Positions 7,640 to 63,846 of a DNA stretch of 64,000 nt are shown in pieces. Both the position numbers and the translations under genes were made by a program. The DNA is from Deltaproteobacteria bacterium (lineage in GTDB: Bacteria; Desulfobacterota; Anaeroferrophillalia; Anaeroferrophillales; Tharpellaceae). The notes beneath the pieces were generated by a model. That model was not told the DNA's origin. It saw nothing but the letters and a program-made list of their open reading frames with translations, and did no database searches. Numbering within the stretch: position 1 is the first letter of the stretch; each line of letters starts with the position of its first letter. The stretch is taken from NCBI GenBank assembly GCA_016938065.1, contig JAFGVI010000026.1, forward strand, positions 13,904-77,903, written 5' to 3'.

Positions 7640-7964
7640 GGGATTTTCCTTTTTCCTCATGTTTGGTTGCGTAGTGGCGACCTTCAACCCCAAAGTCACT
7701 TATCGTAGAATTATGAGTAGATGGGATTATTGAGTTTTTTTGTGCAGATTGCACATAATAAAGCGAGCCGTTGCAAATTGCAAGCAAGATCGAAACTGCG
7801 GCAAAGGCTTTTAGCGAGATTTTCCAGCGGTAATCTGACTGGTCGACTTTTTAACCATCATGGTTAAACACTTGACTTCTTCTGATTTTAGTTTAGAATC
7901 CTCCATATTTTTTTGATGCTGAGGGTTACTCTTTAAGAATATGAGATGTGAGGATTGCTAACAT

Positions 7965-8450
7965 ATGAATGGATGTCCATGCGGTTCAGGAAAAGATTAT
8001 CAAGGATGTTGTGAGTTATTGATAACGGGCGTGAAAAAAGCGACCACCGCCGAAGAGCTTCTGCGGGCGCGCTACAGTGCCCATGCGAAACTGGAGATGG
8101 CTTTTGTCAAAGAGACAGTTCATCCGGAAAAAATATCTAAATATGAACCTTCAACGGCAAAGGATTGGGCTGAAAAATCAGAGTGGGAAAGGCTGGAAAT
8201 TATCGATACGGAAAAAGGGGGAGTCGATGACGAAACTGGAGAGATCGAATTTGTTGCCCATTTCCGACAGAAAGATAAGTTGAAAACTCATCACGAGCTG
8301 GCTCATTTTAAGCGGCATGATGGAGAGTGGTTTTTTTATGACGGTCAGGGAGTTGTACCGAAACAGGTGGTTCGTTCTCAACCTAAAGTCGGCAGAAATG
8401 ATCCCTGTCCCTGCGGCAGCGGAAAGAAATACAAAAAATGCTGCGCTTGA
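7965..8450 (+). CDS. ychJ: YchJ family (UPF0225) protein with N- and C-terminal SEC-C metal-binding motifs
   Basis: 161 aa. CPCGSG at both ends ([12 protein letters not shown]...[16 protein letters not shown]). Confidence 0.8.
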
Positions 8451-8520
8451 GATCTGTTTTACCCATCAGGAATTGTGCCGCAAAGACAAAAATCAAGCTG
8501 ATGATCAAAGCTGCAAGCAC

Positions 8521-8548
8521 AAAAAAGGGAGGCCGGAGGCTCCCTTTC
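8521..8548. terminator. Bidirectional rho-independent terminator between convergent ychJ and the HesB-like selenoprotein gene
   Basis: AAAGGGAG-GCCGGAGG-CTCCCTTT, a perfect 8-bp stem, flanked by an A-run (8521-8526) and a T-rich stretch. Confidence 0.55.
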
Positions 8549-8581
8549 CTGATGGACAATATCTTGTGATATGATCCGGCT

Positions 8582-8905
8582 TTATGAACAGCAGGAACTG
8601 GTTGAACCACAGCCGGAACAGCCGCCGCCGGCTTTACTTAAATCGATATTGGCGGTAATACTGAAACCGACATTTTTAAAATCGACCTTGATCGGTTTGA
8701 CTTTTTCCATGAATTCGCGATCCACCAGAAAGGTGAAATCGCCAAAGGTGTAGCTTTCATCGGTGGGGCGCGCCTGATCCATGACCATGGAAAGAGAGGG
8801 GCCGCCTCAGCCGCCCTCATTGAGGAAAATTCTGATTGGTTCGGGCTCACGATTGGTAAAATAGCCGGCGATCTGTTCGGTTGCGGCTGAAGTCACTTCC
8901 AGCAT
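8582..8905 (-). CDS. IscA/HesB-like A-type Fe-S carrier protein, predicted selenoprotein (in-frame UGA at 8807-8809 = Sec codon 33)
   Basis: ATG at 8905 (minus). The 107-codon frame reads MLEVTSAATEQIAGYFTNREPEPIRIFLNEGG-[TGA]-GGPSLSMVMDQARPTDESYTFGDFTFLVDREFMEKVKPIKVDFKNVGFSITANIDLSKAGGGCSGCGSTSSCCS. It aligns along its length with IscA/SufA/ErpA, and the TGA sits at the first conserved Cys of the GGGCSG motif. A SECIS-like hairpin (UCCAU-GGUC-AUGGA, plus coordinates 8778-8791) lies 15 nt 3' of the UGA. The ORF track shows only the C-terminal 68-aa piece (8582..8788). Confidence 0.6.
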
Positions 8906-8930
8906 CTGCTCTCTCCTTTGCATTTGAGTT

Positions 8931-8955
8931 TGTCTGATTGTCTGATTGTCTGAGT
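8931..8955. repeat. 3 x 8-bp tandem repeat TTGTCTGA
   Basis: tttgtctgattgtctgattgtctgag, in the divergent intergenic region between the selenoprotein gene and galE. Confidence 0.85.
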
Positions 8956-9068
8956 TTTTCTGTTTAAAGCGCAACGAGTTATTTTAATCTCATAGCTTTC
9001 TGCTATGAAAACAATAGTCATCAAATGAATTTTTGTCAACTTACTCTTTGCGAAAAGGGGTAAAATAT

Positions 9069-10091
9069 ATGCGAGTTTTAGTTACAGGCGGCACCGGCTA
9101 TATCGGCAGCCATACAGTTGTTGAACTTTTACAGGCAGGCCACCAGGTTGTAATTATTGATAATCTCAGTAACAGTTCACACCGGGTTCTAGAGAGGATT
9201 GAACATATATGCAGGAAAAAGGTGGAGTTTTACGAAATTGACCTGCGCCATCCTTCGGCTCTGAATGATTTAATGACCCGGAATAAATTTGATGCAGTTA
9301 TTCATTTTGCCGGGCTGAAAGCAGTCGGCGAGTCGGTGGAAAAACCTCTCGCCTATTATGAAAACAATGTCGGCGGCAGCCTTAATCTTTTTCAGGCGAT
9401 GGCGCAATCGGGCATAAAAAATCTGGTTTTCAGCTCTTCGGCAACTGTTTACGGCGATCCCGACAGAGTACCGATCGATGAACATGCGGTCTTGAGACCG
9501 AGCAACCCCTATGGTCGCACAAAGTTGATGATTGAACAAATACTGACCGATCTGCACGCCTCCGACCAACAGTGGAATGTCATTCTGCTGCGCTATTTCA
9601 ATCCGATCGGGGCACATGCAAGCGGTCTGATCGGTGAGGATCCCCGCGACATTCCGAATAATCTTCTACCCTATGTTGCTCAGGTTGCCGGCGGAAGAAG
9701 AGCTCAACTGTCGGTTTTCGGCGACGACTATGAGACCCCGGATGGAACCGGGGTTCGCGACTATATTCATGTTGTTGATCTGGCCCTCGGCCACCTCCGG
9801 GCGCTGGAGAAAATTACGAGTGATCCCGGATTACTCTGCTGCAATCTCGGCACCGGCACCGGTTACAGTGTTCTCGAAGTCGTGAAGACTTTCAGTCGGA
9901 TCTGCGGCATCACCATTCCGTACACTGTCGTTCCCCGGCGGGCTGGAGACATTGCAACCTGCTATGCGGACCCGACTTATGCGCAAAAAACTCTGGGTTG
10001 GGTTGCGGAACGTGATTTGCTTTCAATGTGCGCTGATGCCTGGCGCTGGCAAGAACAGAACCCTGATGGATTTGGAGGAAACAATGATTGA
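9069..10091 (+). CDS. galE: UDP-glucose 4-epimerase
   Basis: N-terminus MRVLVTGGTGYIGSH (Rossmann) and a YGRTK catalytic motif. Track ORF starts at 9033; the internal start MRVLV at 9069 fits GalE homologs. Confidence 0.9.
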   Translation: MRVLVTGGTGYIGSHTVVELLQAGHQVVIIDNLSNSSHRVLERIEHICRKKVEFYEIDLRHPSALNDLMTRNKFDAVIHFAGLKAVGESVEKPLAYYENNVGGSLNLFQAMAQSGIKNLVFSSSATVYGDPDRVPIDEHAVLRPSNPYGRTKLMIEQILTDLHASDQQWNVILLRYFNPIGAHASGLIGEDPRDIPNNLLPYVAQVAGGRRAQLSVFGDDYETPDGTGVRDYIHVVDLALGHLRALEKITSDPGLLCCNLGTGTGYSVLEVVKTFSRICGITIPYTVVPRRAGDIATCYADPTYAQKTLGWVAERDLLSMCADAWRWQEQNPDGFGGNND

Positions 10092-10286: not shown

Positions 10287-11384
10287 TTGCCGGCCTCCGT
10301 CTATCTTGATTCATGCCTTGCCTATAAGGCGGAAACGATTGCTGAATCCTTACGCCGGGGCTTGTCCGCTCTCAATCTTGAAGATTCCGTAAGAAGTGGA
10401 GATCGCGTACTTCTGAAGCCGAACCTGATTATGGCGAAGGCTCCGGAACTTGCGACCACGACGCATCCGGAGGTGGTGCGTGCCGTCGCCATGGTGCTTA
10501 AAGATTGCGGCGCCCGGCTTTTTCTCGGCGACAGTCCCGGATTTGGCTCGCTTGACCGCTGTCTGGAAAAAAGCGGTTTGCAATCAGTCATGAAGAAGAT
10601 GGATATCGCCAAGGTCTATTTTACTGAAGAGACCACGGTGATGGATAATAATAACCTGATTGCCAAAAAGTTGACTCTGGCAACGGCCGCCTTTGCCTAT
10701 GACAAGATCATCAATCTGCCAAAACTCAAAACTCACTCGATGATGGGTTCAACCCTGGCAGTCAAGAATCTTTTCGGTTTTATTCCGGGATTGATGAAGA
10801 TCAAATGGCATCTGCGGGCAGGTCATAACCGTCAGCTGTTCGCCCGGATCATGCTTGATATCTATCGTCAGGTTACCCCGGTCTGGAATTTTATTGATGG
10901 TATCGTGGCCATGGAAGGGGAGGGTCCCACCGGCGGACAACCTCGGCATTGCGGTTTACTGGCACTTGCGGCCGAAGCCCCGCTGCTCGACTGTCTGGTT
11001 GAAAAATGGAGTGGTCTTTCCGCAATGACGCCGATCAGTCAAGAGGCGCAGAAACTTGGCTGGCTACCGGCAGAGCGGCTTGTCGCCGCGGGTCCGGCCG
11101 CAGCCAGTCCGCTCAGTCCCGCGCTGAAACCGGCTCAGGGAGCAACCCGGGCAACCTTTCCCGGGCAACGTCTCTGGCGTCGCCTGCTGGTGCTGAAACC
11201 TCAGATTACCCGTTCCCGCTGTCAGCTCTGTCGTGTCTGCGTACAGCATTGTCCGGCACAAGCCATGCAATTGCTTAACAACAAAATTGTGATTGACTAT
11301 AAACGCTGCATCCGCTGTTACTGCTGCCAGGAGCTTTGTCCTTACGGAGCCGTGCGTGTCGGTTACGGTCTGGTTTTCTGGTGA
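10287..11384 (+). CDS. DUF362 domain protein with C-terminal 2x[4Fe-4S] ferredoxin domain
   Basis: 365 aa, TTG start. RVLLKPNL motif of DUF362. C-terminal CQLCRVCVQHCP...CIRCYCCQELCP are two CxxCxxCxxxCP ferredoxin motifs. Confidence 0.65.
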   Translation: MPASVYLDSCLAYKAETIAESLRRGLSALNLEDSVRSGDRVLLKPNLIMAKAPELATTTHPEVVRAVAMVLKDCGARLFLGDSPGFGSLDRCLEKSGLQSVMKKMDIAKVYFTEETTVMDNNNLIAKKLTLATAAFAYDKIINLPKLKTHSMMGSTLAVKNLFGFIPGLMKIKWHLRAGHNRQLFARIMLDIYRQVTPVWNFIDGIVAMEGEGPTGGQPRHCGLLALAAEAPLLDCLVEKWSGLSAMTPISQEAQKLGWLPAERLVAAGPAAASPLSPALKPAQGATRATFPGQRLWRRLLVLKPQITRSRCQLCRVCVQHCPAQAMQLLNNKIVIDYKRCIRCYCCQELCPYGAVRVGYGLVFW

Positions 11385-62181: not shown

Positions 62182-63846
62182 ATGTTCTGTTTTCAATGTC
62201 AGGAGACCGCAAAAAATCAGGGTTGCACCATTAAGGGTGTCTGCGGCAAGCCGGAAGAGACCGCGAATCTGCAGGATCTTTTAATTCATACCTTGAAAGG
62301 TATCGCCGTTTACGGTGAGAAATTGAAAGAGTTTAATATCATCGATAAAGAGACCTCCCTCTTTACGGCCAAGGCCCTCTTTACCACGATCACCAATGTC
62401 AACTGGGATGATCAGAGCCTGTGTGACTTCATCAAGGAAGCTTTACAACGGCGTAACCAGTTACGCGATAAATTCATCTCAGCCTACAAAGCTGAAAATG
62501 GTCAGGACTTTACCGGGGCGCTGCCGGATGCCGCCACCTGGTTTTCTGCTGATACGACCGTCTTTGCTGAAAAGGCCAAAAGCGTTGGCGTCCTCGCCAC
62601 CGAAAACGAAGATGTCCGCTCTCTGCGCGAGCTTTTGATTATCGGCCTCAAAGGGGTTGCCGCTTACGCCGACCACGCCGCCATTTTAGGTTTTGAAGAT
62701 GAGGCTATCTACGCCTTCATCATGGAGGCCCTGGCCTCAACCACGAAAAATCTTTCGGTGGATGAGATGGTCGCTCTGGTTATGAAAACCGGTGAGACCT
62801 CAGTCACCACTATGGCCCTGCTCGATAAAGCCAATACCACGACCTATGGTAATCCGGAACTTTCCGAGGTCAATCTCGGGGTGCGCAACAATCCCGGCAT
62901 CCTCATCAGCGGCCATGACTTAAAGGATATGGAAGAGCTTCTTAAACAGACCCAAGGCACCGGCGTCGACGTCTATACCCACGGCGAGATGCTGCCCTGC
63001 AACTACTATCCGGCCTTTAAAAAATATGACCATCTCGTCGGCAACTACGGCGGTTCCTGGTGGCATCAGAATACGGAGTTTGAATCTTTCAACGGCCCCA
63101 TCCTCCTGACCACCAACTGCCTGGTGCCCTTAAAGAAAGAGAACACCTATCTGGATCGTCTCTTTACCACAGGGGTAGTCGGCTATGTCGGCGCCGCTCA
63201 TATCGCCGACCGTCCCGCCGGCGGCACTAAAGATTTTTCCGCCATTATCGAGCGGGCAAAAAAGTGTGCTGCTCCGACCGAGATCGAAACCGGTAAAATC
63301 GTCGGCGGCTTTGCCCATAATCAGGTTCTGGCTCTGGCCGACAAAGTGGTTGCTGCGGTCAAGTCGGGCGCCATTAAACGTTTTGTCGTCATGGCCGGTT
63401 GCGACGGCCGCCAGAAATCAAGAGCCTACTTTACTGAAGTCGCCGAAAAGCTGCCGCAGGATACCGTAATTTTAACCGCCGGCTGCGCCAAATATCGCTA
63501 TAATAAACTTGCTTTGGGCGATATCTGCGGCATTCCCAGAATACTTGATGCAGGCCAGTGTAACGACTCCTACTCCTTGGCCGTAATCGCCCTGAAACTG
63601 AAAGAGGTCTTCGGCCTTAAAGATATCAACGAGTTGCCGATCTCTTATGATATCGGCTGGTATGAGCAGAAAGCCGTGGCCGTCCTCCTGGCCCTTCTCT
63701 TTCTCGGCGTCAAAGGCATCCGTTTAGGACCAACCCTGCCCGCCTTCCTCTCCCCGGCCGTGGCGAAAGTTCTGGTCGAAAACTTCAATATCAAAGCGAT
63801 CGACACCGTCGAAAATGATATTGCGGCGATGATGAAGGGTGAATAA
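62182..63846 (+). CDS. hcp: Hydroxylamine reductase (hybrid cluster protein)
   Basis: 554 aa. [17 protein letters not shown]-terminal Cys motif. RBS AGAGGAGA. Confidence 0.9.

Follow-up and report, generated by a model that had tools for sequence, protein, structure and literature searches.

Positions 8582 to 8905 of the minus strand were best explained as a single monocistronic gene encoding a 107-residue IscA/HesB selenoprotein of the NCBIfam family NF038090, with a probability estimated at about 0.88. Positions are those of the window, i.e. the whole 64-kb stretch of DNA that was analysed. The gene would be transcribed from a conserved sigma-70 promoter (9039-9011) and translated from ATG 8905, which stands behind a good Shine-Dalgarno sequence. 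At the in-frame UGA of codon 33, SelB charged with Sec-tRNA(Sec) would be recruited by a hairpin located downstream in the mRNA (upper stem-loop 8791-8778, lower stem to about 8764). Sec would then be inserted and translation would go on to the TAA at 8582. Sec33, the invariant Cys96-x-x-Cys99 pair and Cys105 would most likely bind or transfer an Fe-S cluster or iron. Almost certainly, the gene belongs to the HesB-like/IscA selenoproteins, a known group, and is not of a new kind. The features of the locus were as follows.

9011..9039, minus strand: sigma-70-type promoter, -35 TTGACA (9039-9034), 17-nt spacer, -10 TATTGT (9016-9011)
8930..8953, minus strand: tandem 8-mer repeat CAGACAAT, three copies, in the 5' leader (Tandem Repeats Finder)
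8911..8919, minus strand: Shine-Dalgarno sequence AAAGGAGAG, 5 nt before ATG 8905 (read from the sequence)
8810..8905, minus strand: N-terminal part of the ORF, codons 1-32, MLEVTSAATEQIAGYFTNREPEPIRIFLNEGG, with the ATG at 8905-8903 (translation)
Codons 1-32, minus strand: N-terminal part of the domain, helix 6-17 and strand 24-29 (secondary structure from a predicted model)
8807..8809, minus strand: in-frame UGA, codon 33, putatively Sec, aligned with the Cys that serves A-type carriers as first cluster ligand
8764..8809, minus strand: predicted extended SECIS, lower stem pairing G3-G6/C39-C42 and C9C10/G35G36 (from the sub-lineage consensus fold)
8778..8791, minus strand: putative SECIS upper stem-loop UCCAU[GGUC]AUGGA (folds and conservation)
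8585..8806, minus strand: C-terminal part of the ORF, codons 34-107, beginning GGPSLSMVMDQ and ending GGGCSGCGSTSSCCS (translation)
8582..8584, minus strand: stop codon TAA (translation)
8520..8551, minus strand: intrinsic terminator, hairpin AAAGGGAGCCUCCGGCCUCCCUUU followed by a U-run (fold of 8510-8581)

Gene structure and protein family

A preliminary description of this locus had read the minus-strand frame as ATG 8905, 32 codons, TGA, 74 codons and a TAA at 8582-8584, and this reading was exact. The promoter matched the consensus at 10 of 12 positions in a consensus scan, and TTGACA-17 nt-TATTNT was common to the upstream regions of all 11 homologues of the sub-lineage. The repeat in the leader (period 8, 3.0 copies, 100% matches) was absent among the relatives compared. 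The core GGAG of the Shine-Dalgarno sequence was located 7 nt before the ATG, and AAGGAGG-type sites were found at the same place in relatives. Downstream of the gene, the region 8510-8581 folded at -26.2 kcal/mol (z = -2.98; none of 200 shuffles was as good), and the terminator separated the hesB-like gene from ychJ, which is convergent with it. The hesB-like gene stood alone between galE and ychJ, outside any isc or suf operon.

The protein, scored with U33 written as C, matched NF038090 (IscA_HesB_Se) with 104.8 bits for a cutoff of 85 (E = 2.4e-30), residues 1-98 being aligned on positions 1-101 of the 101 of the model. The homologue P0001, which is 86% identical and carries W at position 33, scored 91.8 bits, and all 40 aligned homologues, of Sec type and of Cys type, matched the same model. 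The name of the model and the alignments made here imply that NF038090 has selenoprotein members. The window protein shared with the family the GG[U/C]GGP motif that holds the Sec/Cys column, and nothing substantive distinguished it except its GenBank annotation. Other models scored lower, with 24.9 bits for PF01521 (Pfam), just under its cutoff of 26.3, and 38.6 bits for TIGR00049, well under its cutoff of 58.8. TIGR01911 (HesB_rel_seleno) matched only partially (residues 18-75, 26.2 bits, E = 9.1e-06); this score is far under the cutoff of 66.35, so the window protein was assigned to a sister subfamily and not to TIGR01911 itself. The UxGP motif was present as U33-G34-G35-P36, with G34, G35 and P36 invariant or nearly so.

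When the family profile was compared with the PDB, IscA-type entries were recovered, first 1nwb (E = 1.4e-12) and then 2apn, 1s98 and 1r94. Residues 2-103 were aligned with 1nwb and with 2apn in single alignments that crossed residue 33, and in both of them codon 33 fell on the GGCSG Cys. Together with the NF038090 match, these alignments bore out the earlier proposals that the two halves form one protein resembling A-type carriers, and that the TGA occupies the place of the first invariant ligand Cys, which is also the invariant Cys of the Cys-type homologues. A-type carriers have three ligand cysteines, C-x(n)-C-x-C, which are C35, C99 and C101 in E. coli IscA. By the profile alignments with the PDB and the ranking of the fold search, the window protein shares its domain with IscA, SufA and ErpA (PF01521, TIGR00049; PDB 1nwb, 1s98, 1r94, 1x0g and 2d2a), but Sec33 stands in place of their first ligand Cys. 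Cysteines are found at the C-terminus of both, as C-G-C in the carriers and, in the Cys-rich tail of the window protein (C96-S-G-C99 ... C104-C105), as CxxC and the invariant C105. Cys96, Cys99 and Cys105 corresponded to invariant columns in the alignment with the Cys-type proteins.

The AF2 model was that of P0001. Its core had block-mean pLDDT values of 72-91 over residues 1-80 and its Cys-rich tail was disordered. Residue 33 was placed in the loop that links strand 24-29 to strand 37-42 within a single domain. The best 12 Foldseek matches were all structures of the A-type-carrier family, with low TM-scores (0.28-0.41, query-normalised). The fold search was therefore specific in its ranking but, given these scores, gives weak support to an A-type-carrier fold. 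Because the TM-scores were low and the tail was disordered in the model, the role of Sec33 as a ligand would be assigned by homology.

The Sec/Cys column and selection across the UGA

Relatives of the gene were collected in two ways. A search of genome contigs with back-translated patterns gave only Cys-type genes, because such patterns cannot contain TGA; codon 33 was TGC or TGT in all 24 of these genomic relatives. TGA-type relatives were retrieved from metagenomes with a degenerate DNA pattern, and codon 33 was TGA in at least 120 of them. In the 14 loci fetched without forcing this codon it was always TGA, and TAA or TAG was found in none. The proposal that the UGA encodes Sec at the position of the ligand Cys was thus strengthened by both collections. 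Upstream of the TGA, the 32 codons of the TGA-type relatives were in an intact frame behind a strong Shine-Dalgarno sequence, and of the 118 loci that extended as far as codon -32, 116 had an ATG there. Entropies at the three codon positions were 17.0, 11.1 and 38.4 over codons -31 to -7 (108 TGA-type homologues), which indicates coding selection. Purifying selection was thus acting across the UGA.

It is highly improbable that the gene is a pseudogene, or that faulty sequencing or assembly turned a TGC or TGT into its TGA. A change of one base would suffice and MAG assemblies do contain errors, but an independent Logan assembly of SRR13394436 showed no mismatch over positions 7872-9335 (1464 nt), TGA included, which makes the sequencing error considered in the preliminary description very unlikely. 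Moreover, at least 120 diverged homologues carried the TGA with purifying selection on both sides of it, and a dedicated downstream hairpin was kept only in the TGA-type genes.

Gene callers report ORFs of 32 and 68 or 69 residues in the window and in its relatives, as would be expected if there were two small genes, one for a 32-residue peptide ending at the UGA and one for a 68-residue fragment translated independently from ATG 8788. This was judged very improbable. ATG 8788 is preceded by CCCUCUCUUUCC, in which no purine-rich Shine-Dalgarno sequence was found. The codons between the UGA and this ATG (GGPSLS) were conserved and in frame, and the stop was invariably TGA, never TAA or TAG. In addition, each Cys-type homologue is one uninterrupted protein, both parts are covered by one HMM or PDB alignment, and in the predicted model the UGA falls inside the beta-hairpin loop of one domain.

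A reassigned code in which UGA means Trp or Gly is implicit in some ENA gene calls, and W was printed at position 33 of several ENA-derived database entries. However, TGA was the terminator of 9 of the 16 identified genes of the window, at lengths consistent with homology, and none of the 16 had an internal in-frame TGA. Likewise, 55 of 121 TGA-type homologous genes ended in TGA. Reassignment was refuted by the counts in the window and its probability is negligible.

Hairpins downstream of the UGA

A SECIS hairpin had been proposed in the preliminary description. Its place and its 15-nt distance from the UGA were correct, it satisfied the published rules and it was conserved, but taken alone it was no better than chance. 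UCCAU[GGUC]AUGGA begins 15 nt 3' of the UGA and its loop 20 nt after it. Bacterial SECIS rules ask for a loop of 3-9 nt, a stem of 4-16 bp, a spacing of 16-37 nt, an MFE <= -7.5 kcal/mol and a G among the first two loop nucleotides with G or U after it (PMC13188914). The window hairpin complied, with a 4-nt loop starting with GG, a 5-bp stem, a spacing of 20 nt and an MFE of -14.5 kcal/mol for the extended element (46 nt), vs -14.9 kcal/mol for E. coli fdhF. Loose stem, loop and spacing rules were also satisfied after 841 of the 2681 UGA triplets of the window (31%), so a test based on such rules was not discriminating. The folding energy was no better than that of shuffled sequences (z = 0.08 and 0.48) and was dropped as evidence for the hairpin. 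No Rfam family reached its gathering threshold over the window, and no SECIS family was found at E <= 10 over 8500-9000; this result was uninformative, given the diversity of SECIS elements in bacteria (PMC13188914).

It was the comparative data, and these only, that made the hairpin credible: its invariance, frozen synonymous sites and absence from Cys-type genes. UCCAU[GGUC]AUGGA was invariant in 11 distinct sequences of the sub-lineage, and therefore without covariation. Within it, the third base was frozen in the codons of Ser+6 (UCC) and Val+8 (GUC), and the same held for Arg+13 (CGC), which belongs to the lower stem. Of the four codons of the gene that were frozen despite at least four-fold degeneracy, three fell in +6..+13 (Fisher p ~0.002; p = 0.022 for the UCCAU[GGUC]AUGGA hairpin alone). 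With 5/5 pairs required, the hairpin formed in none of 24 Cys-type and none of 105 main-clade genes. The hairpin was thus under constraint at the RNA level.

In E. coli fdhF the SECIS is likewise a hairpin within the coding region, close to the UGA on its 3' side, and its apical tetraloop is also GGUC. In fdhF, G23 and U24 are conserved positions of the apical loop and G23 is a SelB-binding site (PMC8659212). The loop of the window hairpin (positions 23-26, 0-based, vs 21-24 in fdhF) is shifted away from the UGA by 2 nt, the stem has another sequence, and the bulged U17 of fdhF has no obvious counterpart in the window hairpin.

Genes of the main clade carried another hairpin, GGCUC[UGGAY]GAGCC, at +23..+37. 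Its pair cells were intact in 523 of 525 cases, with one compensatory change, and it contained frozen synonymous sites which vary in the Cys-type genes. In this register only 2/5 pairs form in the window; the window gene thus lacks the majority SECIS of the family. The chances are about even that this is one orthologous selenoprotein family with two mutually exclusive SECIS elements in the same codons, the sub-lineage of the window having swapped in UCCAU[GGUC]AUGGA at +18..+31. The swap would have come with the replacements A>V, L>M and E>Q/K, required by the new RNA. If this is true and both hairpins bind SelB, they would be a clean natural case of SECIS turnover, with the protein sequence dictated by the structure of the RNA. 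They would also form a matched pair for studies of SelB specificity in Desulfobacterales, and the alternative hairpins could serve in SelB recognition experiments.

Reading of UGA33 without Sec was considered improbable. In that case a near-cognate or suppressor tRNA would insert Trp or Cys, and the hairpin would only slow the ribosome or stimulate read-through; this would hold if, for example, the organism had lost its Sec machinery. The hairpin is indeed short and of no unusual stability, and no Sec machinery was seen within the 64-kb window: selA, selB and selD were not found there by six-frame tblastn with the E. coli SelA, SelB and SelD as queries, nor was a tRNA-Sec found by ARAGORN. A scan of the window together with about 520 kb flanking the homologues also gave no tRNA-Sec, and only two tRNAs of any kind. 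In two relatives, however, selA adjoined the homologous TGA-type gene on one contig. UGA33 takes the position of an invariant Cys of the Cys-type homologues, the classical Sec/Cys signature; the curated name of the family is IscA_HesB_Se; and the GGUC loop is the same as a SelB-binding loop. A related HesB-like family also takes up 75Se, the Sec incorporation having been confirmed by labelling for the HesB-like selenoprotein of the archaeon M. maripaludis (PMC11097638). SelB-like tblastn matches at seven homologous loci covered the GTPase domain only, with 25-30% identity, and were rejected.

Known HesB-like selenoproteins and annotation of the gene

HesB-like selenoproteins are established in anaerobic Deltaproteobacteria, as had been noted in the preliminary description; they carry the UxGP motif and have Cys-type homologues (PMC13188914, PMC1794560). 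Catalogues have included them since the mid-2000s (PMC1794560). The family of the literature (TIGR01911; Geobacter, Desulfovibrio, Syntrophus and Methanococcus) consists, like the window protein, of small IscA-related proteins with U-x-G-P. No concept is changed by the present gene, as HesB-like selenoproteins and their interchange of Sec and Cys were already described about twenty years ago. It adds a well-supported case of Sec at the position of a metal-cluster ligand in a protein resembling A-type carriers.

The main value of the gene lies in annotation, since TGA-type genes are called as short hypothetical proteins or with Trp at the Sec position. No other convincing case of a TGA-split gene was found in the 64-kb window. 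The TGA-type gene was present on at least 120 metagenomic contigs, which suggests that the selenoproteome of MAGs of the sulfate-reducing Desulfobacterales type is systematically under-called. For the window gene, mechanical ORF calling listed only the 68-residue fragment 8582..8788. Mis-annotation had been predicted, and the GenBank entry (hypothetical protein MBN2808201.1, JXR80_01770) is exactly this fragment. Many close relatives were likewise deposited as 'hypothetical proteins' of 68-69 residues (MEA3347499.1 and MCK5540487.1 among them).

Gene structure, annotation and neighbourhood

On the minus strand, a reading frame preceded by the Shine-Dalgarno sequence AAAGGAGAG starts at ATG 8905 and runs for 32 codons (MLEVTSAATEQIAGYFTNREPEPIRIFLNEGG) to a TGA at 8809-8807. 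The same frame continues past the TGA for 74 codons (GGPSLSMVMDQ...GGGCSGCGSTSSCCS) and ends with TAA at 8584-8582. The sequence was re-read, and all coordinates of the preliminary description (ATG, TGA, TAA, hairpin and 68-aa ORF) were correct. Mis-annotation of the gene, which it had also predicted, was confirmed: the mechanical ORF listing of the locus contains only a 68-aa piece (8582..8788), and GenBank lists exactly this piece under locus tag JXR80_01770 as MBN2808201.1, a ‘hypothetical protein’ of a MAG designated Deltaproteobacteria bacterium. No Shine-Dalgarno sequence was found upstream of its internal ATG at 8788. The NCBI MAG records MBN2808201.1, MEA3347499.1 and MCK5540487.1 hold only the 68-69-aa C-terminal fragment, named hypothetical protein, and some ENA-derived predictions (the homologous proteins P0001, P0003-P0005 and others) have the TGA translated as Trp. 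Mis-annotation of hesB-like genes with TGA at codon 33 (TGA-type) is systematic across MAG records and is one of only two modest additions to knowledge made here.

The gene is monocistronic, with the following arrangement:

9039-9011, minus strand: sigma-70-type promoter predicted from sequence (TTGACA-17 nt-TATTGT)
8930-8953, strand of the gene: perfect tandem repeat of the 8-mer CAGACAAT (three copies) in the 5′ leader
8520-8551, minus strand: strong intrinsic terminator, predicted (z = −2.98)
9033-10091: galE, neighbour, divergent from the hesB-like gene
7965-8450: ychJ-like SEC-C-motif gene, neighbour, convergent with the hesB-like gene
L146:10855-13084, L147:5608-7836 and L148:3186-5415 (homologous loci of sub-lineage relatives): cysteine desulfurase-Rrf2-NIL/4Fe-4S stretch

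The window gene belongs to a sub-lineage (‘SMVMDQ’) from which 11 distinct sequences were collected, with roughly 80-87% nucleotide identity. The TTGACA/TATTNT arrangement is kept upstream of 11/11 of these loci, and the conserved promoter would imply a leader of about 100 nt. The tandem repeat is absent from the relatives and specific to the window. The galE/hesB-like/ychJ synteny is conserved throughout the sub-lineage. The genes next after ychJ in some of these relatives encode a cysteine desulfurase (Aminotran_5), a regulator of the Rrf2 family and a protein with NIL/4Fe-4S ferredoxin domains, an Fe-S or sulfur-mobilisation neighbourhood, whereas the window carries pdxJ and acpS at that place.

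Codon 33 among relatives

Two kinds of homologue were retrieved by protein search: many fragments of 64-70 aa whose first residue is the Met that follows the TGA, and full-length proteins (100-140 aa) with C or ‘W’ in column 33; gene callers working with an alternative code translate TGA as W. Codon 33 was TGC or TGT (Cys-type) in 24/24 reference-genome relatives (Desulfobacteraceae, Desulfoluna, Desulfobacter, Desulfobacula, Desulfospira and Desulforapulum), as scanned by a method blind to TGA. A degenerate DNA pattern including TGA matched at least 120 metagenomic stretches. Among the matches listed, the upstream frame was open in every TGA-type stretch, an AAGGAGG-type Shine-Dalgarno sequence lay ahead of the start, and codon −32 relative to the UGA (the start) was ATG in 116 of the 118 loci reaching it and TTG in the other two. 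Codons −31 to −7 were unconstrained by the search pattern; their summed entropies among the matches listed were 17.0, 11.1 and 38.4 bits at codon positions 1, 2 and 3, respectively, the signature of protein-coding selection. Loci were also fetched by the C-terminal fragment alone, with the codon unconstrained, and codon 33 was TGA in 14/14, never TAA or TAG.

The results exclude four readings as serious alternatives. A pseudogene is opposed by the open upstream frame, the coding selection and the TGA-type relatives, and two independent genes by the comparison across codon 33. Sequencing error, which the preliminary description had proposed to check, is countered by a second, independent assembly from Logan (run SRR13394436), identical to window 7872-9335 with 0 mismatches and with the TGA retained. 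As for a reassigned code, this organism uses TGA as a normal stop codon: it terminates 9 of the 16 confidently identified window genes and occurs internally in none.

L105, a metagenomic stretch, has one TGA-type copy on each strand; the two are nearly identical and reflect either an inverted duplication or a palindromic artefact of assembly. In three other TGA-type loci (L062, L074 and L127), aberrant long C-terminal extensions replace the Cys-rich tail; chimeric contigs, frameshifts or fusions might account for them.

Two putative SECIS hairpins

8791-8778, minus strand: hairpin UCCAU-GGUC-AUGGA, starting 15 nt past the UGA

This hairpin had been proposed as SECIS-like. Its sequence, place and 15-nt start were confirmed on analysis; taken alone, it does not discriminate. 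It agrees with each of the four published rules for bacterial SECIS elements (PMC13188914), with a 4-nt loop starting GG, a 5-bp stem, 20-nt spacing and an MFE of −14.5 kcal/mol. In folding energy it does not differ from shuffled sequence (z = 0.08 and 0.48), and 841 of 2,681 window UGA triplets (31%) pass the loose stem, loop and spacing rules. On its own the hairpin means little. The suggested covariance-model check gave no Rfam match for the hairpin region or the window.

Comparison across relatives makes the hairpin credible as a SECIS, because it is invariant in the sub-lineage, its synonymous sites are frozen and it is absent from Cys-type genes. The segment UCCAUGGUCAUGGA is unchanged in 11/11 sub-lineage sequences. 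Among these sequences, 24 codon positions encode an unchanging amino acid that has four or more synonymous codons; a single codon is used at only four, three of which are Ser+6 (UCC) and Val+8 (GUC) within the hairpin and Arg+13 (CGC) within the predicted lower stem. For this clustering, our Fisher test gave p ~0.002 for the region, which was picked after seeing the data, and 0.022 for the proposed hairpin alone. The five pairs can be formed in 0/24 Cys-type genes. The apical GGUC tetraloop is identical to that of the E. coli fdhF SECIS (fdhF sequence verified in E. coli genomes), but lies 2 nt farther from the UGA. Within the apical loop of fdhF, G23/U24 are the conserved positions; SelB binds at G23 and at the bulged U17 (PMC8659212). 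A terminator scan also returned a small hairpin enclosing the UGA codon (GGCUG-AGG-CGGCC, 8800-8812, minus strand), with a weak pyrimidine run after it. This match to the consensus probably arose by chance, although it coincides with the lower portion of the predicted SECIS.

The remaining 105 distinct TGA-type sequences among the matches listed form the main clade (loci L026-L144, e.g. the L026:903-931 region). They share an almost invariant AUGGCUCUGGAYGAG at +21..+35, in which synonymous sites are frozen (GCU 96%, CUG 100%, GAG 99%); the equivalent sites are variable in Cys-type genes. The block folds as GGCUC[UGGAY]GAGCC (+23..+37). Among the matches listed, 5/5 pairs form in 103/105 sequences and 523/525 pair cells are intact, with twenty wobble-compatible changes and one compensatory change (C-G to U-A, in L127). 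In this register (equivalent position 8772-8786) the window forms 2/5 pairs only, and main-clade genes among the matches listed form at most 3/5 in the window's register, so that the family appears to use two mutually exclusive hairpins, i.e. two alternative putative SECIS designs. This is the other modest addition to knowledge. The change in the RNA is accompanied by the sub-lineage amino-acid differences A>V, L>M and E>Q/K.

Family, fold and proposed product

The window protein was scored with Cys written at codon 33 (107 residues). It matched the whole of NCBIfam model NF038090 ‘IscA_HesB_Se’ at 104.8 bits (curated cutoff 85) and fell under the cutoffs of TIGR00049 (38.6 vs 58.8 bits), TIGR01911 ‘HesB_rel_seleno’ (26.2 vs 66.35) and Pfam PF01521 (24.9 vs 26.3). 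A 34-homologue profile matched the A-type carrier structures Aquifex AQ_1857 (1nwb, E = 1.4e-12), HI1723 (2apn) and E. coli IscA (1s98, 1r94), each in a single alignment over residues 2-103, with residue 33 opposite the Cys of the GGCSG motif. Both halves thus align with A-type carriers and the TGA falls at the first ligand Cys, as the preliminary description had stated. The fold was modelled with AlphaFold2 on P0001, 86% identical to the window protein (mean pLDDT 72.8; block means 72-91 across residues 1-80). In this single-domain model, residue 33 lies in the loop joining strands 24-29 and 37-42, and the Cys-rich tail is disordered. The Foldseek top 12 were A-type-carrier-family structures only (DsrR, IscA, SufA, AQ_1857 and HI1723), with low TM-scores (0.28-0.41, query-normalised), a ranking that lends weak support to this predicted fold.

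A 2006 catalogue of 25 bacterial selenoprotein families already included the HesB-like selenoproteins, which occur in Geobacter, Desulfovibrio, Syntrophus, Syntrophobacter and others (PMC1794560). In Methanococcus maripaludis, 75Se labelling confirmed one of them, its function still being unclear (PMC11097638). A 2026 review gives them with TIGR01911 and a UxGP motif, its text making no mention of NF038090 (PMC13188914). The window protein shares this motif (U-G-G-P), yet scores under the TIGR01911 cutoff. It belongs to a sister model, NF038090; judging by the name of this model, its curators at NCBI are already aware that it contains selenoproteins. From the known HesB-like selenoproteins and the NF038090 membership, the gene is therefore a new member, at present mis-annotated, of a known family. 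The proposed selenoprotein reading is supported by the family match, the Sec/Cys column, the coding selection and the hairpin conservation, and we put the probability of a genuine selenoprotein gene at about 0.88. The family and the phenomenon (Sec in HesB-like proteins) are already established.

Most likely, Sec would be inserted at codon 33 in a SelB- and SECIS-dependent manner. The product would be an A-type-carrier-like protein with a selenolate in place of the first ligand thiolate, and Sec33 may act with the invariant C96-x-x-C99 and C105. The analysis demonstrates how the gene is built, which family it belongs to, how selection has acted on it and that the RNA is constrained; Sec insertion, SelB binding and a role with Fe-S clusters are inferences. 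The 64-kb window contains no tRNA genes, no selA, selB or selD detectable by six-frame tblastn with the three E. coli proteins as queries (annotated K-12 genome), and no sel genes among its 20 ORFs annotated by HMM. In two main-clade TGA-type loci, the contig with the hesB-like gene also carries a clear selA some 5-6 kb away (L032:102-1343 and L114:12965-14206); its product matches E. coli SelA at 48% identity, with E about 1e-104. Elsewhere in the window are a hybrid-cluster protein/hydroxylamine reductase gene (62182-63846, 838 bits) and a gene for a DUF362-type 4Fe-4S ferredoxin-domain protein (10287-11384), both consistent with an anaerobic, Fe-S-rich lifestyle.
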